A DNA stretch of 64,000 bases from Thermoleophilia bacterium UBA2241 (lineage in GTDB: Bacteria > Actinomycetota > Thermoleophilia > UBA2241): NCBI GenBank assembly GCA_002347645.1, contig DDYF01000034.1:1907-65906 (forward strand), read 5' to 3'. The first letter of the stretch is position 1; each line of letters starts with the position of its first letter. Position numbers and translations under genes: made by a program. Below are positions 12,257 through 37,769 of this stretch, piece by piece. The notes below the pieces were generated by a model. It saw only the letters and a list, made by a program, of their open reading frames with translations, did not search any database and was not told the origin of the DNA.

Positions 12257-12433
12257 CACTTCCCCTTCGTGCTCCTGTGCGGCAGGCGCGCCGCGCGGCG
12301 GCGTCGCCTGTCCGCGTCCCTCTGATTGATGCCAGAGTCTACCCACCGCAGGGCACTCCTTCGGCCGCTCGGGGGTACGATAGCGCCGAGGGGGCGAGGA
12401 GCCGCTCCTTCCGGCGACGCGAGGGGGTTGACA

Positions 12434-13942
12434 ATGGTATCTGACCAGCCCGACCAGTGCTTCGTCGTGATGCCGTTCGGGACCAAGCCGCTCAACGACG
12501 GCAGCGGCCGACTCTACGATTTCGACAGGGTCTATCGCGTCATCATCCAGCGCGCGATCCGGCAGGCGGGACTCGAGCCCGCGCGCGCCGACGAGCGCAA
12601 GGTCTCCGACATCATCCACGCCGACATGTTCAAGCAGCTGCGCGACCGCGGCGTGGTGCTCGCCGACCTCTCGCTGGAGAACCCGAACGTCTTCTACGAG
12701 CTCGGCGCCCGTCACGTGATGTCGGCCAAGGGCACGGTGCTCATGTGTCGCGCGGGGTCGGAACTGCCGTTCGACGTGAAGCTGTCGCGCGTCATCTTCT
12801 ACGACTTCGACGGCAGTCACCTCGACTGGGAGGAGGTCGAGCGCGTCGTCAAGGAGCTGCAGTTCGCCCTCGAGGAGGCCAAAAGGGGCACGCCCGACAG
12901 CCCCGTGCACGCGCTTCTGGAGCGGGTGCTGCCCGAGGAGGCCGCTGCACGGGAACGCGGCACAGCGGCCGGCGTCGACGAGGGCGGCGTCGACGAGTCA
13001 CTGGCCGACTTCCAGGGCATCGTGGCCGACCACTGGGCCAGTGAGGACACGCCGACGGACGAGCTGCTCGGCGTGTGCGGATCGTCGGTCTTCGGCTGCC
13101 GGGCGCTCGGGCTGCTGACGTTGACGAGAGAGACGCCGTCCGATGAGCTCTCGGCGGTGGCCAGGCGGCTCTACGACCTCTCCCAATTCGACCTCGCGAG
13201 CCGCCTCTACGAGCGCCTGGATGCACAGGGCACGCTGGGCGTCGCCGACCTCCTGGAGTACGGTTCCACGCTGTCCGAGCTGCGCTCGGACCTCGTCGCC
13301 GCGGACCAGGGCCTCGCCCAGATGCAGCGGGCGGCCGACATCCTGACGCCGCGGCTCGAGGAGGAGTCGCCCTCGCCCGAGACACTGCGGGACGGCTTCG
13401 CCTGCTATTACAGGATCGCCGGCCTGTACCGCTGGCGCTGGCAGCTGAGCCGCGACGAGGAAGACTTGACCCTGGCCATCGAGCACTATGAGCGGGCGAT
13501 GGGGGTCGGCAAGCGCCTCGACAAGGCGGCCGAGGACTTCGAGATCGGCCGCCTCGCCGCCTGCCACTTGGCGCTTCTCCTCCTGTTGCGCCTCCGCGAC
13601 GACAACCCCGACCGCGGCGACATCGAACGCCACCGGGAGCAGATCCTCAGCCTCAAGGTCGACGGCCGGCATAGCTTGGTGGAGGAGTCGTTCACCCGCT
13701 GGTGCCAAGCGATCGCGCTGGCCGACGGCGGCGACGCCAACGGCTCGAACCACATGGCCATGCACGCCTACTCCGAGGATGCCAAGGTCATGGACCAGCC
13801 GGGCTGCGAGGCGATCGGCCGCAAGCAGTATGCGGGTCTGCGGCGCTACCTCGAGCACTACTCGGGCGTCCTGCATCACCCCAGCCTCATCGGCCACATC
13901 TCGCAGGTGCTGCAGATCGGCCACCGGACGCAGGCGTCGTGA
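12434..13942 (+). CDS. TIR/nucleoside-2-deoxyribosyltransferase-like N-domain fused to TPR-like helical repeats
   Basis: ATG at residue 37 of ORF 12326..13942, with GAGGGGG upstream. The N-domain reads CFVVMPFGTKPL...YDFDRVY...VVLADLSLENPNVFYELGARH. The C-terminal ~350 aa are helical repeats. Confidence 0.75.
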   Translation: MVSDQPDQCFVVMPFGTKPLNDGSGRLYDFDRVYRVIIQRAIRQAGLEPARADERKVSDIIHADMFKQLRDRGVVLADLSLENPNVFYELGARHVMSAKGTVLMCRAGSELPFDVKLSRVIFYDFDGSHLDWEEVERVVKELQFALEEAKRGTPDSPVHALLERVLPEEAAARERGTAAGVDEGGVDESLADFQGIVADHWASEDTPTDELLGVCGSSVFGCRALGLLTLTRETPSDELSAVARRLYDLSQFDLASRLYERLDAQGTLGVADLLEYGSTLSELRSDLVAADQGLAQMQRAADILTPRLEEESPSPETLRDGFACYYRIAGLYRWRWQLSRDEEDLTLAIEHYERAMGVGKRLDKAAEDFEIGRLAACHLALLLLLRLRDDNPDRGDIERHREQILSLKVDGRHSLVEESFTRWCQAIALADGGDANGSNHMAMHAYSEDAKVMDQPGCEAIGRKQYAGLRRYLEHYSGVLHHPSLIGHISQVLQIGHRTQAS

Positions 13943-14315: not shown

Positions 14316-16514
14316 GTGCCGGATGTCCTGAGTCAGACGCCAATGCGGGAGCGCCGAGCGGTACTCGCAGCGTTCTCCCGCGCCCTGGGTCGGGAGCTGC
14401 ACAACCTGCATTCCGCCGGCCTCGAGCGCTATCCTCAGTTCGTCTTCCAGCAGCTCTACAACCGGCTGCAGTGGGAGGACGGGCCGGTGGCCCCAGTACT
14501 CGAGCCACAGGTCCGCCGGCGCGCTACGCCTGAAGCCCCCCCGTGGCTGCACCAACTCACGCGCGTTTGCGAATCGTCGGCCTATGTCCGCACCCTGGCC
14601 TTTCACGCGGACGTCTGCGCCTGCAGCGTCTCCCCCGACGGGGCGACGGTGCTCTCGGCGGGCGGCCGAAGCCTGAAGCTCTGGGACGCGGACACGGGCG
14701 AGACGCGCGCCACCCTGGAGGGTCACAAGGACCAGGTGAGAGGCTGCGCTTTCTCACCCGACGCCCGCACCGTCCTTTCGGCGAGCGACGACAAGACCCT
14801 CAAGCTCTGGGACGCGGACACGGGCGAGGAGCGCCGCACCCTCGTCGGGCACACGGGAGTCGTGGCGGCCTGCGACTTCTCGCCCGACGGACGGACGATC
14901 GTCTCGGCGAGCGGGGACCAGACCCTGAGGCTCTGGGATGCTCAGACGGGCGCTGAACGCCTCACCCTGACCGGGCACACCGGCGCTCTGAGCGCCTGCG
15001 CCTTCTCGCCTGACGGCCGGACGGTGGTCTCGGCCAGCTACGACGAGACCCTGAAGCTCTGGGACGCGCGCACGGGAGAGGAGCGCCGCACCCTTGCGGG
15101 GCACGAGGAGTTCGTGGAGGCCTGCGCCTTCTCGCCTGACGGGGAGACGGTCGTCTCGGCGAGCTACGACAGGTGTTTGAAGCTCTGGGGCGCGCACAGC
15201 GGCGAGGAGCGCGCCACCCTGGAAGGTCACAAGCATTGGGTCACAGGCTGCGCCTTCTCCCCCGACGGCGAGACGGTCGTGTCGGCGAGCAGGGACGGGA
15301 CCCTGAAGCTCTGGGACGCACGCACGGGGGAGGAGCGACGCACCCTCGTCGGGCACACTTCTGTCAGCGCCTGCGCCTTCTCCCCCGACGGCGTGACGAT
15401 CGTATCGGCGGGGGACGGGGACCTTCGGCTGTGGGACGCGCGCGCAGACCAGGAGCGCCTCTTCTCCTCCTCCGGCCACGAGGACGCCGTCACGGCCTGC
15501 GCCTTCTCGCCTGATGGGCGGACGATCGCCTCGGGAAGCCACGATGAGACCGTCAAGCTCTGGGACGCGCAGGCGGGAGCAGAGCGCCTCACCTTCCACG
15601 GGCATACCGGCCATGTCAGCGTGTGCACCTTCTCACCCGACGGGGAGACGGTCGTCTCGGCGGGTTGGGACGGTACGGTCAAGCTCTGGGACGTGAGCAC
15701 GGGCGCGGAGCGCCGCACCCTCGGCCGGCAAGGTGGCCATGTCGACGCCTGCGCCGTCTCGCCCGACGGCAAGTCGATCCTCTCAGCGGCGGCCGGAGCC
15801 CTGAGGATCTGGGACGCCGGCTCCGGCGAGCTGCGGCTCACCGTCGACGGACCCGAGACAATGGCCGGCCCGGCGAGGGTGGGCGCCTGCGCCTTCTCCG
15901 CTGACGGAAGGACGATCATCTCGGCAAGTCTCGGCATCACCCTCAACACGTGGGACGTGCAGACGGGAGAGGAGGGCCGGACCGCGAGGGGCAAGGCGGG
16001 CTATGTCGACGTCTACGCGTTCTCGCCCGACGGGACGGCGGTCGTGTCGGCGAGTCGCGGTGGCATCCTCCGGCTGTGGGACGTCGACACAGGATCGTTG
16101 CGCGTCACCATCACCGGGCACACGGACACGGTCGGGGCCTGCGCCATCTCGCCCGACGGGTCGGCGGTCGCCTCGGCGGGGCACGACAGGACCCTGAGGC
16201 TATGGGACGCGCGGACCGGCGCTGAGGTCGTGAGCTTCACTGCTCCCGGCGCCCTCGGCGCCTGCGCCCTCAGCCCGGCCGGTGACCGCGTTTGCTGCGG
16301 GGATGGCGCCGGGATCGTGTACATCCTGGAACCGATGGGAGCCCTCGGTGCGGTCTTGCCGCAGACCGGGGCCGTGAAGCCTCGGGTCACCGGAGACGGG
16401 GACGAGGCGGCTAGTTCCGACGGCGACTTCGTCTGCCGCCACTGCGGTGCCGCCGCCCAGCGCGGCGCGCTCTGGTGCCCGGCCTGCGGGCGGGACCTCG
16501 AGACGGCTCGATGA
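14316..16514 (+). CDS. WD40 repeat protein 2 (about 14 blades) with an N-terminal helical leader and a C-terminal zinc ribbon
   Basis: 732-aa ORF. Leader is AFSRALGRELHNL...YPQFVFQQLYNRLQWED...PPWLHQL. About 14 units of type LKLWDARTGEERRTL.GH...V.ACAFSPDG.TVVSAS.D.T. Tail is FVCRHCGAAAQRGALWCPACGRDL. Confidence 0.9.
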   Translation: MPDVLSQTPMRERRAVLAAFSRALGRELHNLHSAGLERYPQFVFQQLYNRLQWEDGPVAPVLEPQVRRRATPEAPPWLHQLTRVCESSAYVRTLAFHADVCACSVSPDGATVLSAGGRSLKLWDADTGETRATLEGHKDQVRGCAFSPDARTVLSASDDKTLKLWDADTGEERRTLVGHTGVVAACDFSPDGRTIVSASGDQTLRLWDAQTGAERLTLTGHTGALSACAFSPDGRTVVSASYDETLKLWDARTGEERRTLAGHEEFVEACAFSPDGETVVSASYDRCLKLWGAHSGEERATLEGHKHWVTGCAFSPDGETVVSASRDGTLKLWDARTGEERRTLVGHTSVSACAFSPDGVTIVSAGDGDLRLWDARADQERLFSSSGHEDAVTACAFSPDGRTIASGSHDETVKLWDAQAGAERLTFHGHTGHVSVCTFSPDGETVVSAGWDGTVKLWDVSTGAERRTLGRQGGHVDACAVSPDGKSILSAAAGALRIWDAGSGELRLTVDGPETMAGPARVGACAFSADGRTIISASLGITLNTWDVQTGEEGRTARGKAGYVDVYAFSPDGTAVVSASRGGILRLWDVDTGSLRVTITGHTDTVGACAISPDGSAVASAGHDRTLRLWDARTGAEVVSFTAPGALGACALSPAGDRVCCGDGAGIVYILEPMGALGAVLPQTGAVKPRVTGDGDEAASSDGDFVCRHCGAAAQRGALWCPACGRDLETAR
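14589..16331 (+). repeat. tandem ~126-nt WD40 coding units with high unit-to-unit nucleotide similarity
   Basis: Recurrent strings such as aagctctgggacgcg...gagcgccgcaccct...gcctgcgccttctcgcc(c/t)gacgg appear with a 126-nt period through the gene. Confidence 0.85.
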
Positions 16515-26157: not shown

Positions 26158-28263
26158 ATGGCTGCTCAGAAGAAGACGGTCGCCGTCGTCGGCGACGTGA
26201 CGATCGACTGGATGGTGATGAACCCCGGCGGCGCGCCGTCGATGATCGAGTACCCCGACATCTGGGGGAGCTACCTGTGCCGCGCCGCGGCGCAGCCGGG
26301 CGGAGCGGCGATGCTGGCCGCACTGCTGGAGGCGCTTGTCGCCGGCGACCCTGCGCTCGCGAAGACGTACCGCGTCACGGGTCCGGCGGTGCCGTCGCGA
26401 GCGCTCGCCTCGCCGGCCTACGACGGCCTCAACCTCACGTGGACCTCGTGGGCCCTGCACCCGCGGAGCCTGGCCGAGAAGAAGGCGTTCGCTTGGCGCA
26501 TGGTCAGCTTCTGGGGGCAGAGCGGTCCCGAGGGCGCCGGCGACCTCGGGCAGGTCTACCCGGCGGACGGGTCGGCGCCGGCGATCCTCGCCGTGGACGA
26601 TTCGCGGCTGGGCTTCCGCGACGCCGAGCAGGTCTGGTCGCGCCTCGTCGAGGCCCAGGAACCGCCGCGGGCGGTGGTGCTCAAGATGACGGCGCCGCTG
26701 ACGACCGGCCCGTTGTGGCAGCGGCTTAGCGCGAGCCACGCGGACGCGCTCACGGTGGTCGTACCGGTCAACGACCTGCGCAAGGGCAGCGTGCAGGTCG
26801 GGAATCCGTTGTCGTGGGAGCGGACGGCGCAGGAGATCGACGTCGCCGTGCGCTCGACGGGTCTGATCAAGGCCGCGCGAGTCGTCGTCAATCTCGGTCC
26901 CGCCGGAGTGATGCTGGTCGAGCGCGACGGCGGGTTCACCCTCGTGTTCGACCCGCGCGCCCAGGAGGGTGACTGGGAGAAGCAGCACCCCGGGCTGGTC
27001 CTGGGCTACGCGACCTGCGTGTCCGCCGCGCTGGTGCTCGACGCCCTGCGCGGAGGCGACGATCCGTCGCTCCTGCTCGATCAGAGCATCCAGGCCATGC
27101 GCGCACTGCACTCAGAGGGATACGACGTGGTCGACGCCGGAGGCGCGCCGATGAGCGTCGACGACGCCAAGGACGCGCGGCGCGTGCACGGGCTTCGCTT
27201 TCCGTACGGGGCGGTCGCGGCTGCCTTTGCCGGCGACCGTCCCGCCGCGTTCGCCCAGCTTCATCTGCCCGAGGCACCGAAGACCGGGTCCAGCATCCTC
27301 GTCCAGTCCTTGGGCGAGCGGGACCTCGCTGCCGTCGCCTGTCAGGCCGCCGTGGCGGGACCCGAGAGCCTGCCCTCAGGCATCCCCGTCGAGGCCGTCG
27401 GCAAGTGGTCGTCGGTCGACCGCAGCGAGATCGAGGGCATGCGCGCCGTGCGCAACATCATGGCCGGCTACATCGCGGACTTCCTGCGCGGCGCGCGCCT
27501 CGAGCGCCCGCTCTCCATCGCCGTCTTCGGCCCGCCCGGCGCCGGCAAGTCGTTCGCCGTCAAGCAGATCGCGAAGGTCCTGCTGCCCGGCAGGCTGGAG
27601 ACGGTCACCTTCAACCTGTCGCAGTCGCGCTCCGAGGACGAGCTGCCGCAGGCCTTCCACCAGGTCCGCGACATGGTGCTCAAGCAGGCGCTGCCGCTCG
27701 TGTTCTGGGACGAGTTCGATACGCCGTTGGCCGGTGAGCGCCTAGGGTGGCTCCGCTACTTCCTCGCCCCGATGCAGGACGGGGAGTTCCGCGAGGCCGG
27801 GGCGTTCCACCCGGTCGGGCCGGCGATCTTCGTCTTCGCCGGCGGCACGTGCTCCACGCTCCAGCAGTTCGCCGAGACGCGCGACGAGGAGGCCGAGAAG
27901 GCGGCCAAGAAGCCCGACTTCCTGAGCCGGCTCAAGGGCTACGTCAATGTGTTCGGTCCCAACCCCGTCGGTCCGGACGACGTGGCCTTCATGCTTCGTC
28001 GCGCGCTCCTGCTGCGCGGCATGCTCACGGGCAAGGCGCCGCAGCTGTTCCAGAGAGGCAAGCTCCAGATCGACGACGGTCTGCTGCGCGCCTTCATCGG
28101 GATCGATCGCTACCGGAACGGCGCACGGTCCATGGAGGCGATCATCGACACCAGCGCCCTCGGCGGCAGGCTGCTCTACGAGCGCTCCAGCCTGCCGCCG
28201 GAAGGTCAGCTCGCGCTGCAGGTCGACGCGCGCGCGTTCCTGGATCTCATGGAGCGCGCGTGA
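26158..28263 (+). CDS. fusion of a degenerate PfkB/ribokinase-like domain with a classical AAA+ ATPase module
   Basis: 701-aa ORF. The N-half has KTVAVVGDVTIDWMV and GGAAMLAALLEAL. The site where PfkB kinases carry DTxGAGD reads QHPGLVLGYATCVSAAL. The C-half has Walker A VFGPPGAGKSFAVKQ and Walker B PLVFWDEFD. Confidence 0.8.
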   Translation: MAAQKKTVAVVGDVTIDWMVMNPGGAPSMIEYPDIWGSYLCRAAAQPGGAAMLAALLEALVAGDPALAKTYRVTGPAVPSRALASPAYDGLNLTWTSWALHPRSLAEKKAFAWRMVSFWGQSGPEGAGDLGQVYPADGSAPAILAVDDSRLGFRDAEQVWSRLVEAQEPPRAVVLKMTAPLTTGPLWQRLSASHADALTVVVPVNDLRKGSVQVGNPLSWERTAQEIDVAVRSTGLIKAARVVVNLGPAGVMLVERDGGFTLVFDPRAQEGDWEKQHPGLVLGYATCVSAALVLDALRGGDDPSLLLDQSIQAMRALHSEGYDVVDAGGAPMSVDDAKDARRVHGLRFPYGAVAAAFAGDRPAAFAQLHLPEAPKTGSSILVQSLGERDLAAVACQAAVAGPESLPSGIPVEAVGKWSSVDRSEIEGMRAVRNIMAGYIADFLRGARLERPLSIAVFGPPGAGKSFAVKQIAKVLLPGRLETVTFNLSQSRSEDELPQAFHQVRDMVLKQALPLVFWDEFDTPLAGERLGWLRYFLAPMQDGEFREAGAFHPVGPAIFVFAGGTCSTLQQFAETRDEEAEKAAKKPDFLSRLKGYVNVFGPNPVGPDDVAFMLRRALLLRGMLTGKAPQLFQRGKLQIDDGLLRAFIGIDRYRNGARSMEAIIDTSALGGRLLYERSSLPPEGQLALQVDARAFLDLMERA

Positions 28264-28844
28264 GCGTCGCCGATCGGGCGGACAGCGCCCCGGCGCCGGT
28301 GCCGGCGGACGGGAAACCGGCGCCGGGCGACGCGCGGGTCATCCGCGTCGGCGTGACCGGCCACCGGACGTTCGACGACCCCTGTGGGGCGGCGCGTCGC
28401 GTGCGCGAGGGCCTGCGCCGCGTGCTCGCCCTGGCCGGCGACGAGGGCGACGGCGCCCGTGCACGGCTCGAGATGATCTCGGCGCTCGCCGAGGGTGCCG
28501 ACCGGCTCGTCGCCCGCGAGGCGCTGGCGCTGCCGGGCACGACCCTGTCCGTCGTGCTGCCGTTCACGGCGGACGACTACGCGCGCGACTTCGAGACAGA
28601 GGAGTCGAAGCGGGAGTTCGCCGAGCTCCTCGCAAGGGCGCAGGACGTCGAGGTGATGCCTGCCACGCCCACGCGTGAGGCCGGCTACGAGATGCAGGGG
28701 CGCCGCATCGCCGACCGAAGCGACGTTCTCGTCGCCGTGTGGGACGGCGAGGGTTCTCGCGGGCAGGGCGGCACGGCGGAGATCGTCGCCTACGCCGCCG
28801 AGAATGGCGCCCTGCTGATGTGGGTCAGGGTGCAGCGGCCCTGA
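28260..28844 (+). CDS. SLOG-superfamily (LOG/DprA/YpsA-like Rossmannoid) protein
   Basis: GTG at 28260 overlaps the upstream TGA. IRVGVTGHR...ISALAEGADRLVAREAL...LSVVLPFTADDY..DF...SDVLVAVWDGEGSRGQGGTAEIVAYA follows the YpsA/SLOG motif order as I remember it. Confidence 0.65.
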   Translation: MSVADRADSAPAPVPADGKPAPGDARVIRVGVTGHRTFDDPCGAARRVREGLRRVLALAGDEGDGARARLEMISALAEGADRLVAREALALPGTTLSVVLPFTADDYARDFETEESKREFAELLARAQDVEVMPATPTREAGYEMQGRRIADRSDVLVAVWDGEGSRGQGGTAEIVAYAAENGALLMWVRVQRP

Positions 28845-28870
28845 GAACGGTGGGCGACGACGAGGCACAG

Positions 28871-30730
28871 ATGACGAGCGCCGCGACGTCGGGGGCGGCG
28901 CGCGGCCCCGGGGCGGAGGGCGAAATCGCGCCGCGTCGCGCGGCACGGCCCCGGCGCCTGCGCGACGTCGTGCGCCGGACGCAGTGGCCGGCGGTCGTGG
29001 CGGCCGCCGCCGTCGCGCTCGTGCTCGGCTACGCCGGCTTCGTACGCTACATCGAGGCGGCTGGCGAGTCGCCCACCTTCTGGGACATCCTCTATCGTGA
29101 CCTGCAGCTTTTCACGATGGAGTCCGGCTCGGTGAGCGGCTGGGTGCCGTGGGAGCTGCAGGTCGCGCGCTTCCTCGCCCCTGCCGTGACCATGGTGACC
29201 GCGGTCGCCGCGATCGCGGCGCTCCTCAGCGAGCGTCTGAGCCTCGCCCGCCTGCGCTTCGTGAGCGACCACACCGTGATCTGCGGGTTGGGGCGCAAGG
29301 GACTGCGCGTCGCCGAGGCGCTTGCCGACCGGTCCGAGCGGGTCGTCGTTATCGAGAACGACGAGCTCAACGACCACGTCGAGCGGCTGCGCGAGCGCGG
29401 GATCACCGTCCTCCTGGGCGACGCCGCCGACCCGCAGCTCCTGCGCCGGGCCCGCGCCGGCCGCGCGAAGCGCGTGCTCGCGGTCTGTGGCGACGACGCC
29501 GTCAACGCCGAGGTGGCGCTGCGCTGCCGGGAGCTGAGCCGCGAGAGCAGCGGGTCGGCGCTGGACTGCCACGTGCACATCGTCGACGGCGACCTCTGCC
29601 GCCTGCTGAAGGAGCAGGAACTGCGCGGCTCCGGCGAGGACCTCATGCGCCTCGAGTTCTTCAACGTCTTCGAGAGCGGCGCCCGCATCCTCGTCCGCCA
29701 GTACCCGCCGTTCGCACGTGAGGACGCGACGGCCGTCGGCCCGACGCCGCACGTGCTCGTCGTTGGGTGCGGGAACATGGGCAGCAACGTCGTGGCGCGC
29801 TGCGCCCGGGATTGGTGGCGCGCGGGTGCCGGGAGCGAGCGTCGCCTGACGGTCACGGTGGTCGACCGGGAGGCGCGTGCGAGGTGCGCGGCCATGGAGA
29901 CGCGATGGCCGCGTCTCGTCGAGTCGTGCGAGCTGGTCCGCGCCCCGATGGACGTGACCTCGGCGGCGTTCGAGCGCGGCGAGTTCCTTGAGGGCAACGC
30001 CGAGGGCCGTCCGCCGGTGAGCATTGCCTACGTCTGCCTCGACGACGAGTCGCGCGCGCTCAGCGCGGCACTCGTCCTGCATCGCCGCACGCGGCACCGC
30101 CCGCTGCCCGTCGTCGTGCGCATGGCGTTCGACACCGGGCTGGCCAGCCTCGCCGCCGGCGCTGGCGGCTTCCCCGGGTTGTCCGGTTTCGCCGTCATCA
30201 GTTGGGTCTGCGAGCCCGACCGCCTCTTCGCGGGGACGCACGAGACGATCGCCCGCGCGATGCACCGGAGTTACTCGGCCGAGCAGCTCTCACTCGGGGA
30301 GACGGAGAGCACCAACCCGGCGATGGTGTCCTGGGAGCGCCTGTCGGAGGAGTACCGCGAGTCGAACCGCCGCCAGGCCGACCAAGCGGTCGTCAGGCTC
30401 GGCGCCGTGGGTTGCGACATCGCGCCCTTGTCCGACTGGGAGGCAGAGCGGTTCACGTTCACCGAGCGCGAGATCGACGACATGGCGCGTATCGAGCACG
30501 AGCGCTGGCGCGAGGAGCGCCGCGCGGCGAAGTGGACGTACGCCCCAGGTCCCAAGGACGGCGCGCGCAAGACCAATCCGCTCCTGGTCAGCTGGGACGA
30601 CCTCCCCAAGAAGGTCAAGGAGGAGAACCGCGTCATCGTACGCGAGCTACCACACTACCTCGCGGACGTGGGACTGCAGGTCGTCCGGCTCGCTGCGCCG
30701 GACGCCGCCTCGGCGGACACGACCCGCTGA
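28871..30730 (+). CDS. membrane protein: 2 TM helices, RCK/TrkA_N NAD-binding domain, and two C-terminal RyR-type repeats
   Basis: ATG at residue 45 of ORF 28739..30730. Hydrophobic WPAVVAAAAVALVLGYAGF and APAVTMVTAVAAIAALL. HTVICGLGRKGLRVAEALADRSERVVVIEND is a GxGxxG Rossmann motif. IARAMHRSY...NPAMVSWERLSEEYRESNR and MARIEHERWREER...NPLLVSWDDLPKKVKEENR are the RyR-type repeats. Confidence 0.8.
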   Translation: MTSAATSGAARGPGAEGEIAPRRAARPRRLRDVVRRTQWPAVVAAAAVALVLGYAGFVRYIEAAGESPTFWDILYRDLQLFTMESGSVSGWVPWELQVARFLAPAVTMVTAVAAIAALLSERLSLARLRFVSDHTVICGLGRKGLRVAEALADRSERVVVIENDELNDHVERLRERGITVLLGDAADPQLLRRARAGRAKRVLAVCGDDAVNAEVALRCRELSRESSGSALDCHVHIVDGDLCRLLKEQELRGSGEDLMRLEFFNVFESGARILVRQYPPFAREDATAVGPTPHVLVVGCGNMGSNVVARCARDWWRAGAGSERRLTVTVVDREARARCAAMETRWPRLVESCELVRAPMDVTSAAFERGEFLEGNAEGRPPVSIAYVCLDDESRALSAALVLHRRTRHRPLPVVVRMAFDTGLASLAAGAGGFPGLSGFAVISWVCEPDRLFAGTHETIARAMHRSYSAEQLSLGETESTNPAMVSWERLSEEYRESNRRQADQAVVRLGAVGCDIAPLSDWEAERFTFTEREIDDMARIEHERWREERRAAKWTYAPGPKDGARKTNPLLVSWDDLPKKVKEENRVIVRELPHYLADVGLQVVRLAAPDAASADTTR

Positions 30731-30776
30731 CGCCCGTGCGCGGCCGCAGTCGATCGAGCTCCGAGACGGCGGCGGC

Positions 30777-33290
30777 GTGAGCTCGAATCGAGGTCTCGTC
30801 ACCCTGATCTCCCTCGTGCTGTTGGGCCTTGGGTCGGGGTTCGGCGCCCTGGCCGGCAGTGTCGTCGTCGGCCTGCTCGTGGGCGCCGGGTTCATCCTCG
30901 TGTGGTTGGGCTGCGGTGCCGTGGAGATACGCGCCTACGGCCGCGCCTGGTTCGCGATCGGCGCCGGCGTGGTCTCGACGGTCGACGCCATGTGGCTCGG
31001 CGACATGGCCGGCCGCTGGCTGTGGCTGCCGGCCCTGCTCGTGATGGGCGTGGCGATCGCCGTCGCCGGCAGCAGCGCGTGGAACGACAGCCGCCGCCAC
31101 GGCGAGGCGCTGGTCGCCCTCGGCATCCTCGTCATGGTCTTCGCCGTCCTGGCGCCGATCGTCGTCTATCCGTCCCTCGCGGGACCGACGGAGGCGGCCG
31201 GGGGTGGGTCGGGCGCGTTCAGCGCCGCCGACGGCCTGTCGGCCGTCGGCGGCGCCCTCCGCGAGGCGGCCACCTCGCTCTGGGGGTGGATCGACCTTGC
31301 CGCCCTTGTGCTGATCGGCCTCGCTTCTTGGCGCCGCGCCGGCGCCGAGCTCGCCCCAGCGCTGGCCGTGGCCGCCGTCTTCATTGCCGGGGGGGTCTCC
31401 GCCGGCGCCGGGGAGACCGTCGCCGCTGCGGCCGGGGCCAGCCCGGCGTCGTGGCTCAAGGATCTGCTGCTCGCCTCGGACGAGCACTTGGGCTCGGCAG
31501 GATGGGGGGTCCTCGCCCTGAGCGCCGGTGTCGTGCTCGCGTCGCTGCCGGTCCTGCGCAAGCTCGTGGTCATGAACCAGGTCGCCGTCGCCGCGAGTCG
31601 CGCCGAGGGGAGCGACGCCGTTGCGGTTGCCCGCTTCGTGACGCTCGAGGGATACGGCACCGGTTGGTCGTCCGTCATCGTCCTGGCCTACGAGATCCTG
31701 TACATCGGCACGGCGGCGATGCTCTGGGTGGGCCTCCGGTGGGCCGCCGGCGACGCGAGCGCGCTGCCCTTCGACGTCATCCGCATCCCCGACCTGGCGG
31801 TGCCCAGCTTCCGTCCGGTGTGGGAGGTCTCGTACTTCTCGCTGGCCGTCATCCTGGGCGCCTCCGCCGTGCTCACCGGGCGCGTCTTCGCCCGCATCTC
31901 GGTGTCGAAGCGCGTGCCCGTCTTCACGAGCCCCGTGTGGCAGATGGGCATCGCCATCTTGGCGGCCTTCGTGGCGCCGGCAGGGGTCCTGCTTTACGGC
32001 ATCGGCATCACGTGGCTGCAGACTGGGGCGGTGCTGTCTCCGGGCAAGCCCGCGCGTCTGCTGCACGACGAGAGGTACGCCACGGGCGTGTCCGGCACGC
32101 TGGGCACGAACGTCATCATGCCATCGAGCGGCAGCGAGCCGTCCGCAAAGACGACCGGCGCAGGTGCGGGGACGGCCACGGGCGACTCCGCCGCGACGGC
32201 GGCGGGCGGCGGAAGCCCTGCCTCAGGGTCTCCGGGCGCGGAGGGCGAAGGGAGCGGAGCGATGGGCGGAGGGTTCGACGACAAGCCGATCTGGGAGCGG
32301 AACGACGCGGACGAGCGCCCGATCTGGGCGGAGGCGGATGCGCCCGGCGGGGACACCGGCGACGGCGGCGCGGCAGGCGGCGCGGCCGCCGCGGGCGAGC
32401 CGTCACCACCTGCCGTCACGCCGCTGTTCGACGCCGGACCGCTCGTCGACATCGCACGCATCGGCGAGGACGACTACGTGGTCCTGAGTGAGGAGGGCGA
32501 CATCACCCTCTTCCGCCGCGGATCGGCCGTCTGCGACAAGCGCGTGGCCGTTGTGAGGCCCCTCGGGCTGGGCCCGATCCCCCAGTGCCGCGCTGCGTTC
32601 GTCGACGGTGGCGGCCGGGTCCTCGACCTGTCCTTCAGTGACGAGACCGACGACGACGACCGAGGGATCGCTGCCGTCAGGGTGCAGCATTCGGGTGTGA
32701 TCGAGGAGGCGACGTGCTTCGCCGTGAGCCCGTCGGGCGCGCTGGTCGTGACCGGCGGCGGAGAGAAGGCGCAGGTGACGGGGTTCTTCCTCACGAGTGA
32801 GATCGCCCGTGTCCTGTTCAAGGGCGTCGAGCCGGCGACGGCGCTCGGCTTCTCGCCGGACGGCCGCGTACTGGCCGTCGGATCGGCGAGCGGCGACGTC
32901 CACTTGGTGGACGTCGGCGGTCAAGGTGTCGTGGCCGTCCTCAGTGCCGGCCGGGCGTCGGGTCGCGGGGTCGTGGCGGTCACTGGTGCTCCGGACGACA
33001 GCTGGCTCGTCGCCAGCGACGACGAGCGAGTCGCGGTGTGGCGTGGAGGCGAGCCGCTGCGCAGTGTCGACGCTGGAGGAGAGATCACCGCCCTGACGGC
33101 CGACGGCGATGCAGGCACCGTGGCCGTCGGGACGGCGTTCGGACTCGTCCGGGTCCTGGGCGCCGACCTCGGGACCCAGCTTGCCCAGGAGCGGCCGTTC
33201 GCCGCCGAGGTCCGCCGCATCGTGTGGGTCGACGACGCCGTAGTGTGCGCGGCGGTGGATGGCCGCATCCGGCGCATCAGATTGAAGTGA
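30777..33290 (+). CDS. polytopic membrane protein (about 10 or more TM helices) with a Gly/Ala/Ser-rich linker and a C-terminal WD-like beta-propeller
   Basis: GTG at residue 252 of ORF 30024..33290, just after the upstream stop at 30730. The N-terminal ~420 aa is a run of hydrophobic helices. The linker contains DDKPIWERNDADERPIWAE. The C-terminus has blades such as LGFSPDGRVLAVGSASGDVHLVDV and VDGRIRRIRL. Confidence 0.7.
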   Translation: MSSNRGLVTLISLVLLGLGSGFGALAGSVVVGLLVGAGFILVWLGCGAVEIRAYGRAWFAIGAGVVSTVDAMWLGDMAGRWLWLPALLVMGVAIAVAGSSAWNDSRRHGEALVALGILVMVFAVLAPIVVYPSLAGPTEAAGGGSGAFSAADGLSAVGGALREAATSLWGWIDLAALVLIGLASWRRAGAELAPALAVAAVFIAGGVSAGAGETVAAAAGASPASWLKDLLLASDEHLGSAGWGVLALSAGVVLASLPVLRKLVVMNQVAVAASRAEGSDAVAVARFVTLEGYGTGWSSVIVLAYEILYIGTAAMLWVGLRWAAGDASALPFDVIRIPDLAVPSFRPVWEVSYFSLAVILGASAVLTGRVFARISVSKRVPVFTSPVWQMGIAILAAFVAPAGVLLYGIGITWLQTGAVLSPGKPARLLHDERYATGVSGTLGTNVIMPSSGSEPSAKTTGAGAGTATGDSAATAAGGGSPASGSPGAEGEGSGAMGGGFDDKPIWERNDADERPIWAEADAPGGDTGDGGAAGGAAAAGEPSPPAVTPLFDAGPLVDIARIGEDDYVVLSEEGDITLFRRGSAVCDKRVAVVRPLGLGPIPQCRAAFVDGGGRVLDLSFSDETDDDDRGIAAVRVQHSGVIEEATCFAVSPSGALVVTGGGEKAQVTGFFLTSEIARVLFKGVEPATALGFSPDGRVLAVGSASGDVHLVDVGGQGVVAVLSAGRASGRGVVAVTGAPDDSWLVASDDERVAVWRGGEPLRSVDAGGEITALTADGDAGTVAVGTAFGLVRVLGADLGTQLAQERPFAAEVRRIVWVDDAVVCAAVDGRIRRIRLK

Positions 33291-33479: not shown

Positions 33480-35357
33480 TCAGATGCCCAGCGCCTCCCG
33501 CTTGCTCGCGATGTGCGCCAGCATCGCGGCCACGGCCTCGCCGGCGTCCGTCTCGACGGCCAGCTTGCCGCCGGTGACGCCGGGCAGGTCCTGGGTCACG
33601 AGCTTGACGAGATTCGGCGCGCCGGTCACGAACGGCATCGGGTTGACGTGCACGTAGAGACCGAAGGCCAGCGCCGCCATGGCGTCGATGGTCGCCTTCT
33701 GCTCCATGTACTCGGGGGCCGTTGCCACTACAGGCAACGCCGGTACGTCCACACCGAGCGCGTCGGCGATGGCGCCGACGAGCAGCATGATTCGGCCCGT
33801 GTCGGTGCAGGTGCCGAAGCTGAGAACGGGCGGGATGCCGAGCAGTTCGCAGACGGCCTTGAGGCCGTGGCCGGCCATCTCCTTGGCCTCGGCCGCCTCG
33901 AGGCCGGCGACCTGCAGGGCGGCGTTGCCGCAACCCAACGCCAGGACGAGCACGTCGTTCTTGATGAGCTCCTTGGCCACGGCCACGGTGAAGCTGTCCT
34001 GGTCGCTGTCGCGCAGCGTGGTGCAGCTCACGAGGCCGCAGACGCCCTTGAGGGTCCCGTTCTTGATGACGTCGAGGAGCGGGTCGAGGCTGCCGCCGAG
34101 GGTGCCGAGGAGCGACTCGGTGCTGAACCCGGCGACGGCATCGCCCTTGCGCAGCGGGGGCGTGGTCTGGCCGAGGGCGTTCCTCTTGGGGAAGTTCGCC
34201 ACGGCCAGGTCGATGAGCTGCTGCGCCTGCTCGGCGGCCTTCGACGCCTCGAACACGATCGGCTTCTCGGCGCCGTCGATGCCGACGAGGTCGCTGACGG
34301 GGACGAGCAGCGTGCCGTGGGCGGCGCAGGTCGCGCCGAGGGTCGGCACGGTGCAGTTCATGTCGGCGGCGAACATGTCCAGGCCACCGGTGGCGACGGC
34401 AAGTTCCTCGTTCAACCAGTTGCCGGTGAGGCCCACGAACACGTCATCCACCTCGAAGCGCTGGACGAGCTCCTGGCCGGTCTCGATGGAGCCGACGATG
34501 CGCAGGCCTTTGGCGCCGGCGACCTTCGCCTTCTCCTGGGCCGCCGGCTCGTGGGCGGCGGCGATCAGGGCGGCGCCGATCATCGGTTCGTGTCCGTTGA
34601 CAAGGATGTTCACGTACTCGGGGTCGATGATGCCCAGGTCGACCTTGATCGGATGCGGGGCAGGCGTGCCCCAAAGGGCGTCCTGCGCGAGCTCGAGGGG
34701 GACCTGCGCGCCGTAGGCGGTCGCGACGCCCAGGCGCAGGGCCTTGAGCGCGAGGCTGACGTAGTCGCCGTCGACGTTGGTGAAGCAGCTCGAAGTGGCG
34801 AACATACTCTCGTGGAAGATGCCGCCCGGCATGATCCCGAGCTTCTTCCACGTCTCGACGCGCGCCGCCGGCGCCAACTTCTCGACGAACGGCGAAGGGC
34901 TCTGGTGGTCGCGGTTGAACTCGGTGAGGATCGCGTCGGCGAGGCGCTTCGGCAGCGTGTCCTTGGGCTCGACGGGCTCGCCGACGACGGCGGCGAGCGT
35001 CTCGAGCTTGCTCCAGTCCTTGATCTCGTACGTCCCGCCCGGCTTCGCCTCGCGGAGGGTCTTCATGACTTCGGTGGCGTGATACGTGTAGGTCGCGGTC
35101 CCCATGGTGTTCTGCAGGAGCAGGTTGCGCATCGCCATGCCGTCGGCGTCGATGCCGCAGACGCCGCGCGGCGTCCTCTCGGTGATACGGCAGGGGCCCT
35201 GCGAGCAGAGCGAGCAGCGGATGCCGCCCTCGCAGAACTTGCAGCGCTTGGTGCCGAGGTCGCCCTGCGCCTCCATACGGTCGAAGACGGTGTCCTCGGC
35301 GGCCGCGCGGGTCTTCTCCAGCATGGTGTGGACCGAGGCGTGTGAGCTATCCGCCAT
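33480..35357 (-). CDS. cooS: anaerobic Ni-Fe carbon monoxide dehydrogenase catalytic subunit
   Basis: 625-aa ORF. CKFCEGGIRCSLCSQGPCRI...GVCGIDADGMAMRNLL matches the CooS N-terminal cluster-binding signature. The length is typical. Confidence 0.88.
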   Translation of the reverse strand: MADSSHASVHTMLEKTRAAAEDTVFDRMEAQGDLGTKRCKFCEGGIRCSLCSQGPCRITERTPRGVCGIDADGMAMRNLLLQNTMGTATYTYHATEVMKTLREAKPGGTYEIKDWSKLETLAAVVGEPVEPKDTLPKRLADAILTEFNRDHQSPSPFVEKLAPAARVETWKKLGIMPGGIFHESMFATSSCFTNVDGDYVSLALKALRLGVATAYGAQVPLELAQDALWGTPAPHPIKVDLGIIDPEYVNILVNGHEPMIGAALIAAAHEPAAQEKAKVAGAKGLRIVGSIETGQELVQRFEVDDVFVGLTGNWLNEELAVATGGLDMFAADMNCTVPTLGATCAAHGTLLVPVSDLVGIDGAEKPIVFEASKAAEQAQQLIDLAVANFPKRNALGQTTPPLRKGDAVAGFSTESLLGTLGGSLDPLLDVIKNGTLKGVCGLVSCTTLRDSDQDSFTVAVAKELIKNDVLVLALGCGNAALQVAGLEAAEAKEMAGHGLKAVCELLGIPPVLSFGTCTDTGRIMLLVGAIADALGVDVPALPVVATAPEYMEQKATIDAMAALAFGLYVHVNPMPFVTGAPNLVKLVTQDLPGVTGGKLAVETDAGEAVAAMLAHIASKREALGI

Positions 35358-35408: not shown

Positions 35409-35792
35409 TCAACCGTGGATGAGTTCGGGCAGGCACTTGACGCAGACCCAGGTGCTCTCGCCCGACTTGCGGCACGGGAAGAGGACGGCGTCCATCTCGC
35501 TGCGCCCGCAGTTGAAGCAGCGCTGCTGGATCGCGACGGCCGCGGCCAGCTTCTCGGCCACGCGCTCCGCGGCGGCTTCTTCGTCGAACGCCGCCGCGTC
35601 GCGCTGTTCGATCGTGAGCGCGCCGGTAGGGCAGACGGCGAGGCAGAAGCCGGCGCCGTCGCACAGCTCATCTTTGACGACCTTCGCCTTCCCGTCGACC
35701 AGCTCGATCGCGCCTTCGGCGCACGGGGTCACGCAGAGCCCACACCCGTTGCAGAGCTCCTCGTCGATCTTCACGATGCTGCGGACTGCCAT
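35409..35792 (-). CDS. 2x[4Fe-4S] ferredoxin-domain protein with a C-terminal Cys4 ribbon, upstream of cooS
   Basis: ATG at residue 17 of ORF 35409..35840, with AAAGGGG about 9 nt upstream. [12 protein letters not shown]-type and [12 protein letters not shown] motifs, then CFNCG...CVKC. Confidence 0.75.
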
Positions 35793-35954
35793 GAGTATGT
35801 GACCCCTTTCCGGTTTCGCGGCCGCCGACCCCATCGGCACCGTGGTGTCGGTGGAGCCAGGGGAACGGCCGTCTTGGCCCGCCGCCGTCTATGGCGACGG
35901 GGTAAACACTATCGTCGTGATGGTTACCGTAGCGGCTCTTCGGCTGCCGGTACA

Positions 35955-35986
35955 TTGACCTCTGTCAACGCATTGACCAGCGTCAA
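35955..35986. promoter_or_regulatory. two tandem FNR/CRP-type palindromes TTGAC-N4-GTCAA in the divergent ferredoxin-cooS / oxidoreductase intergenic region
   Basis: TTGACCTCTGTCAA (35955-35968) and TTGACCAGCGTCAA (35973-35986), centres 18 bp apart, each preceded by CA. A CRP/FNR regulator with an E--SR recognition helix lies at 38661-39359. Confidence 0.55.
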
Positions 35987-36068
35987 CCCTCAGGCCGACG
36001 TTCGGGAGGCGCGGGAGCGGGTACAACCCCGGCCGACCACCTGGACGCGACCCCGACCCGGAGGGCTC

Positions 36069-37769
36069 TTGGACTCGTTCTCCGTCCTGATCGGCGGCAA
36101 GGCCGGCGACGGGATCACCGAAGCCGGCGGCATGATCGCCCACCTGCTCAACGAGCTTGGGTACCGGCTCTACCGGCACACCGACTCCCCCTCCTTGATC
36201 CGCGGTGGTCACAACTTCGCGATCGTGCGCGCGCACCGCGGCCGCATCGGCGCGCATCGTGACCACGTCAACGTCCTCATCGCGCTGAACAAGGAGACGC
36301 TTGCGACGCACGCGTGGCGGCTCAAACAGCGCCCGGTCACGGTCTACGACAACGAGACGATCACGGCGGAAGACCTGCCGTCGATGGCGCACCCGTTCCG
36401 CACCGGCATCCCCGTGGCGACCATCCTCGAGCAGGAGGAGGCCCCGTCGGTGATGCGCAACACCGCGATCCTGGGAGCCTTCTGCAAGGCGATCTCGATC
36501 CCATGGATGGTGCTCGAGGACGTCATCAAGCGGTACCAGCCGAAGAAGACCGAGCTGAACCTCAAGGTCGCGCGCCGGGGCTACGACGCCGCGACCGAGA
36601 AGCTGCTCGTCGACCTTCCGGGCGGTGGACCCGTGCCCGTGGTCGGCGGGCTCGAGGCCACCGGGCTGGGGCTCATCCGCGGCGGCCTGAAGGCGTACGC
36701 GGGGTATCCGATGACGCCGGCCAGCGGGCTGCTGCACTTCCTCGCCCGGCAGGCGCCGCGTTTCGAGCTCAAGGTCGTGCAGCCCGAGGGCGAGATCGCC
36801 GCGGTCGTCATGGCGCTGGGGCACGCTTATGCGGGCGAACGCGCCGCCGTCGGCACGTCGGGCGGCGGGTTCGCCCTCATGGTCGAGGCCCTCAGCATGG
36901 CCGGGCAGGCTGAGCTGCCGATCGTCGTCGTGCTCGGCCAGCGGCCCGGCCCCAGCACGGGCCTGCCGACCTACACCGCCCAGGGCGACCTCGAGTTCGC
37001 CCTGACGGCGGGGCACGGCGAGTTCCCGCGGGCGGTCGTCGCCCCGGGCGACGTCGAGCAGGCCTACGCGTGGAGCACGCTGGCGATGGACCTGGCGTGG
37101 AAGTACCAGGCGCCGGTCATCGTCCTCGGCGACCGGACGCTCAACGACAACGCGCAGAGCTTCGTCGCCGGCGACGTGCCGTCGCTGCCGCGTCTTGAGC
37201 AGAAGGACTGGGACGGCGCTTCCATGGACGCCTCCCCCGACCTCGCCTACAAGCGCTACCTCATCACCGACGACGGCGTCTCACCCCTCGCGTTCCCCGG
37301 CCGCGAGGGTGCGGTCGTCAAGGTGAACAGCTACACCCACGACGAGTACGGGTTCACGACGGAGGACCCGGCGACGACCGTCGCCATGCAGGACAAGTGG
37401 CTACGCAAAGGGCGGGCCATGGCCGAGGAGTTGGACGGGCTGCCCACCGTCAACGTGTTCGGCGATCCCCGGGCGTCCCGCACCGTCGTCACGTGGGGCT
37501 CTCCGGTGGGCGCGCTGCGCGAGATCGCTGGCCTCGCGGGCCTGCGCGTCGTACAACCCGTGGTGCTGTGGCCGTTCCCGCGGCGCCGTCTGCAGGAGGC
37601 ACTGGCCGGCAGCGACCAGGTCGTCGCCGTCGAGATGAACGCGACCGGTCAGCTGGCCGGCCTGTTGCGTCGCCACGGCTTCGCCGTGCACGGGACCCTG
37701 CTCCGCTACGACGGTCGGCCGTGGGGTGTGGGCGAGTTGCGGCAGCGCGTCGAGGAGGAGCTGGCATGA
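36069..37769 (+). CDS. 2-oxoacid:ferredoxin oxidoreductase, fused gamma-alpha subunit
   Basis: Real gene within ORF 35415..37769. FSVLIGGKAGDGITEAGGMIAHLL (gamma-type N-terminus), then GYPMTPASGLLHFLA and MAGQAELPIVVVLGQRPGPSTGLPT (alpha). The start is uncertain: TTG 36069 lies only 3-4 nt after GGAGGG. Confidence 0.75.
   Translation: MDSFSVLIGGKAGDGITEAGGMIAHLLNELGYRLYRHTDSPSLIRGGHNFAIVRAHRGRIGAHRDHVNVLIALNKETLATHAWRLKQRPVTVYDNETITAEDLPSMAHPFRTGIPVATILEQEEAPSVMRNTAILGAFCKAISIPWMVLEDVIKRYQPKKTELNLKVARRGYDAATEKLLVDLPGGGPVPVVGGLEATGLGLIRGGLKAYAGYPMTPASGLLHFLARQAPRFELKVVQPEGEIAAVVMALGHAYAGERAAVGTSGGGFALMVEALSMAGQAELPIVVVLGQRPGPSTGLPTYTAQGDLEFALTAGHGEFPRAVVAPGDVEQAYAWSTLAMDLAWKYQAPVIVLGDRTLNDNAQSFVAGDVPSLPRLEQKDWDGASMDASPDLAYKRYLITDDGVSPLAFPGREGAVVKVNSYTHDEYGFTTEDPATTVAMQDKWLRKGRAMAEELDGLPTVNVFGDPRASRTVVTWGSPVGALREIAGLAGLRVVQPVVLWPFPRRRLQEALAGSDQVVAVEMNATGQLAGLLRRHGFAVHGTLLRYDGRPWGVGELRQRVEEELA

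Follow-up and report, generated by a model that had tools for sequence, protein, structure and literature searches.

Within a 64,000-nucleotide stretch of contig DDYF01000034.1 of Thermoleophilia bacterium UBA2241 (hereafter the window), a gene at positions 26158..28263 encodes a protein of 701 amino acids in which a domain of predicted ribokinase/PfkB-like fold, lacking the hallmark phosphotransfer residues of that fold, is followed by an AAA+ ATPase module. We favor the reading, to which we give about an even chance, that this protein is a ligand-sensing pseudokinase driving an AAA+ ATPase within a defense-like system centered on nicotinamide adenine dinucleotide (NAD) and ADP-ribose (ADPR). 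The function proposed here is derived entirely in silico, by sequence comparison and structure prediction, and its parts merit different degrees of belief: the assignment of fold and architecture we hold with high confidence, and a sensory rather than an enzymatic role of the N-terminal domain we consider somewhat probable. That its ligand is of the ADPR class we purely infer, and we offer it tentatively, at rather less than an even chance. The gene and its parts are laid out as follows, all coordinates being window positions on the plus strand unless stated otherwise:

26158..28263 (including the stop codon), plus strand: target gene, predicted PfkB-like pseudokinase-AAA+ fusion of 701 amino acids, supported by uninterrupted translation, GC content at third codon positions (GC3) and full-length homologs
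26158..27237, plus strand: N-terminal domain of predicted ribokinase/PfkB fold, about residues 1-360, from AlphaFold2 and Foldseek, with no Pfam PfkB match
27238..27387, plus strand: small helical linker, about residues 361-410, leading from the PfkB-like domain to the AAA+ module, from AlphaFold2 secondary structure, moderately conserved
27388..28263, plus strand: AAA+ ATPase module, about residues 411-701, from Pfam PF00004 and Foldseek

As long spurious open reading frames (ORFs) are plentiful at the GC content of the window (about 70%), GC3 in frame plots was used to pick the real genes. The target ORF has GC values of 0.72, 0.49 and 0.92 at the three codon positions, statistics as expected of a real gene in this genome, and a Shine-Dalgarno-like G-rich stretch lies 5' of its ATG. 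A first-pass annotation made from the letters alone had described the fusion by several motifs, all of which we located in the translation: VAVVGDVTIDW (residues 8-18), GGAAMLAAL (48-56), GPPGAGKS (458-465) and FWDEFD (516-521), together with the segment that it quoted as replacing the DT.GAGD motif of the kinases, QHPGLVLGYATC (residues 276-287). A gene-calling artefact as the origin of the fusion was ruled out, the identical architecture being present, full-length, in hundreds of genomes; the joining of the PfkB-like domain to AAA+ is neither chance nor a one-off event.

The N-terminal domain is placed by its predicted structure. Like PfkB/ribokinase-family kinases such as RbsK, HldA/HldE and adenosine kinase, it adopts in the AlphaFold2 model (49 homologs; predicted local distance difference test score, pLDDT, 90.6; predicted template-modelling score, pTM, 0.90) an alpha/beta fold with a beta-sheet lid, here a beta-hairpin at residues 92-122, and it carries a lineage-variable insert at about residues 326-344. 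In a Foldseek search of the PDB, this half has PfkB-family kinases as its best matches (E 4e-9 to 1e-6, probability 1.0, target-normalised template-modelling (TM) score 0.45-0.60), headed by B. cenocepacia HldA (4e8w, E 4.1e-9) and including 6ilr, 2pkk, 2ajr and 1rka/1rk2; the enzymes matched comprise ribokinases of Arabidopsis and E. coli, the adenosine kinase of M. tuberculosis, the 1-phosphofructokinase TM0828 and ketohexokinase. PfkB-family kinases make up 10 of the 13 leading matches (E 4e-9 to 2e-7), or 12 of 13 with the related nucleoside/carbohydrate kinases 2c4e and 1vm7. Profile searches, in contrast, detect no PfkB relationship. PF00294 matches neither the whole protein (E<=0.1), nor the N-terminal half alone (E<=1), nor any of the 49 members that were scanned individually against Pfam (E<=10); PfkB goes undetected for the target by NCBIfam, PADLOC and phmmer against PDB sequences; and an hmmsearch of the PDB with the family profile yields no PfkB chain at E<=10. 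Local hhalign comparison of the family N-terminal half with E. coli PfkB paralogs, in 3- and 9-sequence alignments, gives 13-20% probability, weak but collinear. A homolog search with E. coli RbsK for a diverse PfkB profile returned only ribokinases 80-97% identical to RbsK, and no additional PfkB kinases were found among the proteins of the retrieved homologous loci. With no support from profiles, the fold assignment rests on the predicted structure and the collinear mapping of motifs. Thus, the first-pass claim of a PfkB-like N-terminal half holds as a ribokinase/PfkB fold in the model, but not in the profile searches by which that annotation had itself proposed to judge it. The positions on which the mapping turns are these, with conservation here and below referring to 209 full-length members of the family:

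26206..26208, plus strand: D17, equated with the ribose-binding D16 of E. coli ribokinase, in the motif G12-D13-x-T-x-D17-W18, by hhalign; Asp in 96% of the 209 members
26299..26304, plus strand: G48-G49, GG hinge dipeptide of PfkB proteins, 93% and 94% conserved
26779..26781, plus strand: R208, at the position of the Mg/phosphate-binding Glu of the NxxE motif (RbsK E190), by hhalign; Arg in 99%
27013..27015, plus strand: T286, at the position of the catalytic base (RbsK D255 in GAGD), by hhalign, with the conserved C287 next to it

In this mapping, G12-D13-x-T-x-D17 aligns with G11-S-I-N-A-D16 of RbsK, which contains the sugar-binding Asp, and the N-terminal GG motif (region of PROSITE PS00583) is present, lying after a beta-strand (42-49) and before a helix (50-63), as in ribokinase, according to both the model and hhalign. 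K43 and N46, which follow GG in ribokinase, are without equivalents in the target by hhalign and inspection of the sequence. N205 and R208 fall at N187 and E190 of RbsK; with Asn in only 28% of members at the first of these positions and Arg in 99% at the second, the NxxE motif is absent. Similarly, G283-Y-A-T286 aligns with A252-A-G-D255 of RbsK, the anion hole and catalytic base. Position 286 is Thr in 41% of members, Ser in 25%, Leu in 7% and Ala in 4%, placing Asp outside the four commonest residues; the DTxGAGD motif (PS00584) is lacking, and of the anion-hole motif only the Gly scaffold is left (G283, 92%). The proposed loss of the kinase catalytic residues is therefore borne out, with T286 for D255 and R208 for E190, and D17 and GG retained. 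Based on the model and this alignment, the N-terminal module is a ribokinase scaffold that has been kept while both hallmark phosphotransfer residues have been lost; judged by hidden Markov model match, the NxxE motif and the GAGD Asp, the target falls outside the PfkB kinase family.

Conservation extends well beyond these sites. Positions conserved at 93% or more include D13, W18, W113, R114, G120, D148, G152, R154, W160, S219-W220-E221, G250, D265, G279, R315 and G321, with R114 reaching 99% and both D148 and W220 100%, and E270 follows at 90%. Among these, the near-invariant polar residues of a putative pocket are D13, D17, W18, R114, D148, R154, R208, S219-W220-E221 and D265, and conservation of the key residues of the domain is as strong in core-only forms as in those extended at the C-terminus. 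In common with PfkB kinases, the domain has the G-x-x-x-x-D strand motif and the Asp of the sugar site, and it keeps the hinge dipeptide GG as well as the LGxxG loop and, capping a helix at the former anion hole, G-x-G. It departs from them in having no significant profile match, in the replacement of the catalytic Asp by Thr/Ser and of the NxxE Glu by an invariant Arg, in an additional conserved insertion, 'QEGDWE', ahead of the former GAGD site, and in being always joined upstream of an AAA+ module, never alone, in the matches inspected.

These residues admit of another reading, namely that the N-terminal domain is still an enzyme of non-canonical chemistry which makes, modifies or destroys a signal rather than sensing it, acting either as a kinase with C287 or D265/E270 as base or as a hydrolase/glycosidase on an NAD-derived nucleotide. 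The near-invariant charged residues (D13, D17, D148, R114, R154, R208, E221, D265 and E270) are unusually many; C287 is conserved in 79% of members beside the former catalytic site, and ThiM of the ribokinase superfamily has a Cys at the position of the Asp; the glycine scaffolds of the nucleotide site, LGxxG and GxG, are kept; and the partner families introduced below, SLOG/LOG, RyR/RyDEP and DUF4062, all contain enzymes. However, both hallmark phosphotransfer residues are absent family-wide, the change of the metal-binding Glu to Arg argues, from established PfkB enzymology, against Mg-ATP chemistry, and the variability of position 286 (T/S/L/A) is atypical for a catalytic residue. We regard an enzymatic role as unlikely and prefer that of a sensor, for which the plant PfkB-family pseudokinases FLN1 and FLN2 offer a precedent of kinase loss with a non-catalytic role.

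The C-terminal module, which the first-pass annotation had called an intact AAA+, passes the Pfam gathering threshold for PF00004 (24.1 bits against a cutoff of 21.2, E 5.5e-5). PF00004 matches all 49 of the members scanned (best E 2.2e-7), and Foldseek relates this half to ClpB-NBD2, Skd3, ClpC, p97 and NSF. It consists of a conserved N-terminal hairpin and helix (WSSVDRxEIE), the P-loop core, a pre-sensor-1 insert and a helical lid, and its main motifs are:

27529..27552, plus strand: Walker A, GPPGAGKS, residues 458-465, with G458, G461, G463 and K464 100% conserved
27697..27720, plus strand: Walker B, LVFWDEFD, residues 514-521, with D518, E519, F520 and D521 100% conserved
27928..27930, plus strand: R591 in DFLSRL, putative arginine finger resembling that of the second region of homology (SRH), 100% conserved, before strand beta5 in the model

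In addition, a putative sensor-2 Arg of the lid, R657, is 100% conserved and a putative sensor-1 Thr, T564, 89% conserved; the roles suggested for R591, T564 and R657 derive from their position in the model and motif context. On its sequence, this module is a member of the AAA+ class and is predicted to be a catalytically competent ATPase, such that the earlier description of it is upheld. It resembles the classical and HCLR AAA+ proteins (ClpB-NBD2, Skd3, ClpC, p97, NSF and the proteasomal Rpt subunits) in its GPPGxGK(S/T) and hhhhDE motifs, sensor-1 Thr, SRH-like Arg and sensor-2 Arg in a helical lid, but differs from them as a single AAA+ module preceded by a pseudokinase domain, often followed in the family by a C-terminal RyR or SLOG domain, with an almost invariant insert peculiar to this family, LGWLRxFLAPMQDGxF, following Walker B. 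Its pore-loop-1 also lacks the aromatic-hydrophobic-Gly motif of threading unfoldases, a conserved FNLSQ[F/S] (S490 in the target) standing instead after beta2. In bacterial enhancer-binding proteins of the NtrC type, an N-terminal signal domain gates the assembly and ATPase activity of an AAA+ module; unlike these, the target has neither the sigma-54 interaction (GAFTGA) loop nor a DNA-binding domain.

The absence of a canonical pore loop bears on a further alternative, that the C-terminal module is not a motor but an oligomerising switch of the kind seen in STAND (signal transduction ATPases with numerous domains) and Nod-like receptor (NLR) proteins, related to 'nSTAND5', whose assembly would scaffold partners, with the PfkB-like domain as effector or adaptor. 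Consistent with it are the matches to nSTAND_NTPase5 (PF25199) in 45 of the 49 scanned members (best E 4e-8) and the NACHT NLR-like proteins encoded alongside; but every one of those matches falls under the curated cutoff (21.7 bits for the target against 34), PF00004 is above threshold in the target, the SRH-like R591 and sensor-2 R657 are what one expects of AAA+, structural comparison ranks Clp, Skd3, p97 and NSF first rather than APAF-1 or NLR proteins, and the NTPase is not followed by a winged-helix domain or a repeat sensor arm. We deem this switch distinctly unlikely, and proceed with an AAA+ ATPase downstream of a sensor.

Homologs of the whole protein form at least 766 protein clusters, nearly all full-length, which, where the source databases name them at all, carry only the names 'ATP-binding protein', 'AAA family ATPase' and 'hypothetical protein', and at least 494 species-representative genomes of bacteria and archaea encode the family. 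The domain-architecture census suggested by the first-pass annotation was run with the N-terminal half alone, by an exhaustive phmmer search against 1.84 billion representatives that returned 1086 clusters at 50% identity; in the best 150 of these, the domain always lies at the extreme N-terminus of this AAA+, in proteins of about 680-720, 860-950 or 1090-1100 amino acids or in fragments, and the canonical free-standing kinase form of about 300 amino acids does not occur among them. The longer forms add a C-terminal RyR (e.g., P0097), SLOG (P0010) or both (P0111). Hosts include Thermoleophilia, Chloroflexota, Acidobacteriota, Chlorobiaceae, Gemmatimonadota, Clostridia, Ignavibacteriota and Syntrophaceae, and, among archaea, Methanomicrobia and another Euryarchaeota genome. 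The closest relative, 80% identical and with the same gene order, is from another Thermoleophilia locus (L008). The archaeal versions (L033 and L069, from the Methanomicrobia and the other Euryarchaeota genome) are of the core+RyR form, and that of L033 has DUF4062-NACHT and WD40 genes beside it, pointing to a horizontal transfer of the entire system between bacteria and archaea. A viral origin of the family was rejected: BFVD holds only generic AAA+ matches and IMG/VR one divergent relative. This sole match from viral collections (L092, 6180..9134, IMG/VR UViG_3300048597_000653) is of about 960 amino acids and 41% identical in the AAA+ part; its N-terminal part retains 'IIGDAGYDIY' and 'LSWEQTAEDL' amid long insertions, and it may come from a provirus, be carried by a phage or reflect the mis-binning of a contig. 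As the first-pass annotation had supposed, the fusion is not a characterised family: it is absent from Pfam, NCBIfam, PADLOC and PDB sequences, and we found no prior description of it in the full-text literature, a search outside which the SLOG-defining paper of 2015 (Burroughs et al.) falls.

We then examined contextual information from the gene neighborhood in the window and across homologous loci. The target belongs to a gene set that is conserved, reads in one direction and is coupled in translation, and in which it is brought together with SLOG, RyR and DUF4062-NACHT-WD40 genes. The members of this set are, besides the target:

20947..23391, plus strand: WD40 beta-propeller protein, 814 amino acids, matching Pfam WD40 and TEP1-propeller models
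23511..26120, plus strand: DUF4062 and NACHT NTPase protein, 869 amino acids, Pfam NACHT 1.3e-10 and DUF4062 1.9e-10
28260..28844, plus strand: SLOG-superfamily protein (YpsA/DprA-like), 194 amino acids, from frame plot, translation, AlphaFold2 and Foldseek
28871..30730 (start at 28850 GTG or 28871 ATG), plus strand: membrane protein with TrkA_N (RCK) and RyR domains, Pfam TrkA_N 8.7e-23 and RyR 4.4e-13
30777..33290 (start at 30759 or 30777), plus strand: multi-pass membrane protein with a C-terminal WD40-like propeller, from frame plot, translation and Pfam WD40

The GTG start of the SLOG gene overlaps the TGA stop of the target (GTGA), a start that is hidden in a list of longest ORFs, and the gaps elsewhere in the cluster are short. 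Pfam matches nothing in the 194-residue protein, which has no SIR2, transmembrane or Macro effector domain. Its AlphaFold2 model (32-sequence alignment, pLDDT 90.6), however, matches in Foldseek YpsA (2nx2, E 2.4e-9, TM score 0.63-0.68), ShosA, DprA, LOG and Moco-carrier proteins, as well as the ThsA SLOG domain bound to 3' cyclic ADPR (3'cADPR; PDB 7uxs); from the resemblance to YpsA, DprA, ThsA-SLOG and LOG, it is a genuine SLOG-superfamily member. The earlier placement of the target between a NACHT NTPase and a SLOG-like protein is thereby confirmed, by Pfam upstream and by structure downstream. PADLOC, run against seven cluster proteins with the SLOG gene left out, gave significant matches only to single proteins, Avs1b to the NACHT protein (3.7e-4) and HEAT-ARM_XIII to a WD40 protein (2.6e-41).

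In the TrkA_N-RyR protein, PTFWDILYRDLQLFTMESGSVSG lies between two N-terminal hydrophobic helices and resembles by eye a degenerate K+-channel pore helix and selectivity filter; Pfam Ion_trans_2 has no match in this protein, which would be an ion channel gated by its RCK and RyR domains if the pore-like segment is real. Its RyR repeats keep H-x-x-W (as HERW) and have Asn for the 'HP' histidine of animal RyRs. The last gene of the cluster, 30777..33290, encodes a Gly/Ala/Ser-rich linker, is syntenic in L008 and lies in a region of strong negative AT skew (-0.21); an ORF at 30902..32491 was rejected as wrong-frame. Three WD40 beta-propeller genes stand 5' of the cluster proper, at 14316..16514 (+), 18413..20587 (-) and 20947..23391 (+), two of which also hit models of the TEP1 propeller. 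Combined with the DUF4062-NACHT gene, this trio looks like an NLR of the NWD1/TEP1 type in split form. Further out lie genes for a prismane/CO-dehydrogenase family protein (33480..35357, -), a pyruvate:ferredoxin oxidoreductase-like protein (35415..37769, +) and a ClpC/ClpB-type double-AAA chaperone (9411..11807, -), and two long ORFs with strong coding statistics and no Pfam match (356..2800, -, 814 amino acids; 12326..13942, +, 538 amino acids).

The association with these partners recurs across the 80 best-matching homologous loci, for which flanks of up to 10 kb were inspected. An RyR domain is fused in frame to the C-terminus of the core in 46 of them; 42 have a SLOG gene no further than 10 kb away, which in 37 is immediately adjacent, either co-directional downstream or divergent upstream; a full gene for the transmembrane-TrkA_N-RyR protein is found in 17; and DUF4062, NACHT and WD40 occur in 19, 17 and 17, respectively, WD40 genes accompanying the NACHT genes in 17 loci. 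At least one RyR, SLOG or Trk-RyR partner is present in 65 of the 80. In Thermomicrobiales and Chloroflexia, a SLOG gene lies divergently, directly upstream of a core-only homolog (L018-L020, L024, L025, L030, L031, L035, L043, L053, L058 and L064), a two-gene minimal form without RyR and NACHT genes, in which both genes share one promoter region spanning some 150-200 bp.

Several of these partners have recently acquired functions. DUF4062 is a TIR-like NADase that converts NAD+ to ADPR, both in antiphage defense (Swarozyc) and in human TEP1, and DUF4062-NACHT-WD40 is the architecture of NWD1/TEP1 (10.64898/2026.05.01.722283); a second preprint describes a DUF4062 'Evangelion' defense family. 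RyR-domain (PF02026) proteins of phages cleave 2'/3'cADPR to ADPR (RyDEP) or sequester them with nanomolar affinity, using residues common to the Repeat12 domains of animal RyRs (10.64898/2026.05.28.727677); a tblastn search of phage genomes with RyR domains did not recover RyDEP. SLOG domains bind isomers of cADPR in ThsA (PDB 7uxs). In the readable text of the three DUF4062 preprints, AAA+, RyR, SLOG or ribokinase-like partners go unmentioned, and neither the other papers cited here nor further full-text searches yielded a ribokinase-like or AAA+ partner. More generally, the co-encoding of an NAD-cleaving domain (DUF4062) with nucleotide sensors (SLOG, RyR) is the logic of the NAD+/ADPR conflict systems as a class, and it recurs across the 80 loci.

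Comparison with the closest such systems sets this one apart. As in Thoeris, which pairs the TIR protein ThsB with the SLOG-containing ThsA, a TIR-like NAD-cleaving domain is co-encoded with SLOG and other nucleotide sensors, the SLOG neighbor resembles ThsA-SLOG, and RyR domains recognise Thoeris signals; unlike Thoeris, the cluster has no canonical ThsB TIR, SIR2 or other ThsA effector and no PADLOC Thoeris match (seven proteins, SLOG excluded), its NADase sits in a NACHT NLR-like protein, and nothing in Thoeris corresponds to its PfkB-like-AAA+ protein or its RCK-RyR membrane protein. Its upstream DUF4062-NACHT gene with WD40 proteins alongside recalls Swarozyc/NIR/Evangelion and NWD1/TEP1, but Swarozyc is a single-gene DUF4062 system with AUX, whereas the present cluster is multi-gene and the target protein itself has no DUF4062. 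The system is neither Thoeris nor Swarozyc.

In light of these usual neighbors, which handle signals of the NAD-derived, ADP-ribose type, the target probably belongs to a new bacterial and archaeal immune-signaling pathway. We posit that its PfkB-like domain, as a pseudokinase, could bind a small molecule that contains ribose and carries phosphate, the likeliest candidate being ADPR or a derivative made from NAD+ by the neighboring TIR-like NADase. ADPR amounts to an ADP linked to O5' of a ribose, and one molecule of it could for this reason fill both sites of a ribokinase, that for the nucleotide and that for the sugar; the ribose would be held by the retained D17 and D148, with R208 perhaps taking over from Mg2+ in clamping the diphosphate. 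Closure of the lid upon binding would then control oligomerisation or ATP hydrolysis of the AAA+ module, as in other sensor-gated AAA+ proteins, and the ATPase might remodel a partner, presumably the SLOG protein, a NACHT oligomer or the RCK-RyR membrane protein, with a membrane or ion-flux response of the abortive-infection type as the likely outcome. In its most elaborate form, which is speculative and which we think unlikely in full, the protein would be the core transducer of an undescribed prokaryotic pathway with an NAD-derived second messenger, where ADPR or a cADPR-type signal from the NACHT-DUF4062 protein is read by the dead ribokinase as a bisubstrate mimic and passed to the AAA+ motor, which with SLOG and RyR gates the RCK-RyR channel. 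If true, bacteria and archaea would possess an antecedent of signaling through TRPM2 and ryanodine receptors gated by ADPR/cADPR, and of NLRs of the NWD1/TEP1 type.

A number of points weigh against the sensor-motor reading. No sequence-profile method, be it Pfam, the PDB hmmsearch or hhalign at its 13-20%, ties the N-terminal half to PfkB, and the proposed residue equivalences depend on a weak alignment and a predicted structure; the many conserved acidic and basic residues fit unrecognised catalysis as well as ligand sensing; and without a canonical pore loop, the 'mechanical work' that the first-pass annotation had envisaged is not evident for a polypeptide substrate. Others concern context. 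At 14 of the 80 loci, mostly from Thermoleophilia, the gene is solitary, with no SLOG, RyR or NACHT within 10 kb, such that the protein may work without NAD-linked partners; PADLOC models match neither the target (best E 0.014) nor the cluster as a system; and the genes flanking the cluster in the window are ordinary metabolic or housekeeping ones, leaving no obvious defense island in this genome. The same three observations would suit a housekeeping or stress-related AAA+ protein, akin to a chaperone, that uses its PfkB-like domain to gauge a metabolic pool of ribose or nucleosides, with the linkage to NACHT, SLOG and RyR being secondary or lineage-specific. Yet the partners at 65 of 80 loci and the frequent covalent fusions to RyR or SLOG speak against such a role, as do the patchy spread over distant phyla and archaea, typical of horizontally mobile conflict systems, and the experimental links of the partner domains to immune NAD signaling; we judge it very unlikely and retain the ligand-sensing pseudokinase coupled to an AAA+ ATPase as the favored reading.

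What is new here is the sensor family, the fusion and the multi-gene system that joins DUF4062-NLRs with cellular RyR and SLOG modules, the individual folds and the general logic of such systems being known. The work defines a large unannotated protein family and, on the reading favored above, would add the pseudo-ribokinase as a new sensor fold to receptors of nucleotide signals such as CARF, SAVED, SLOG, Macro and RyR. The NADase activity of DUF4062 and the cADPR-binding and glycosidase roles of RyR have been known only since 2026, and the system described here links both to SLOG, RCK and AAA+ by gene order and covalent fusion. It may thus serve as a test bed for the prokaryotic roles of cellular RyR-domain proteins and for the signaling downstream of NLR-linked NADases, as well as for the question whether RyR/TRPM-style gating of ion flux by ADPR goes back to prokaryotes, and it would show clearly how the fold of a metabolic kinase can be enlisted, as a pseudoenzyme, in the control of a molecular machine.

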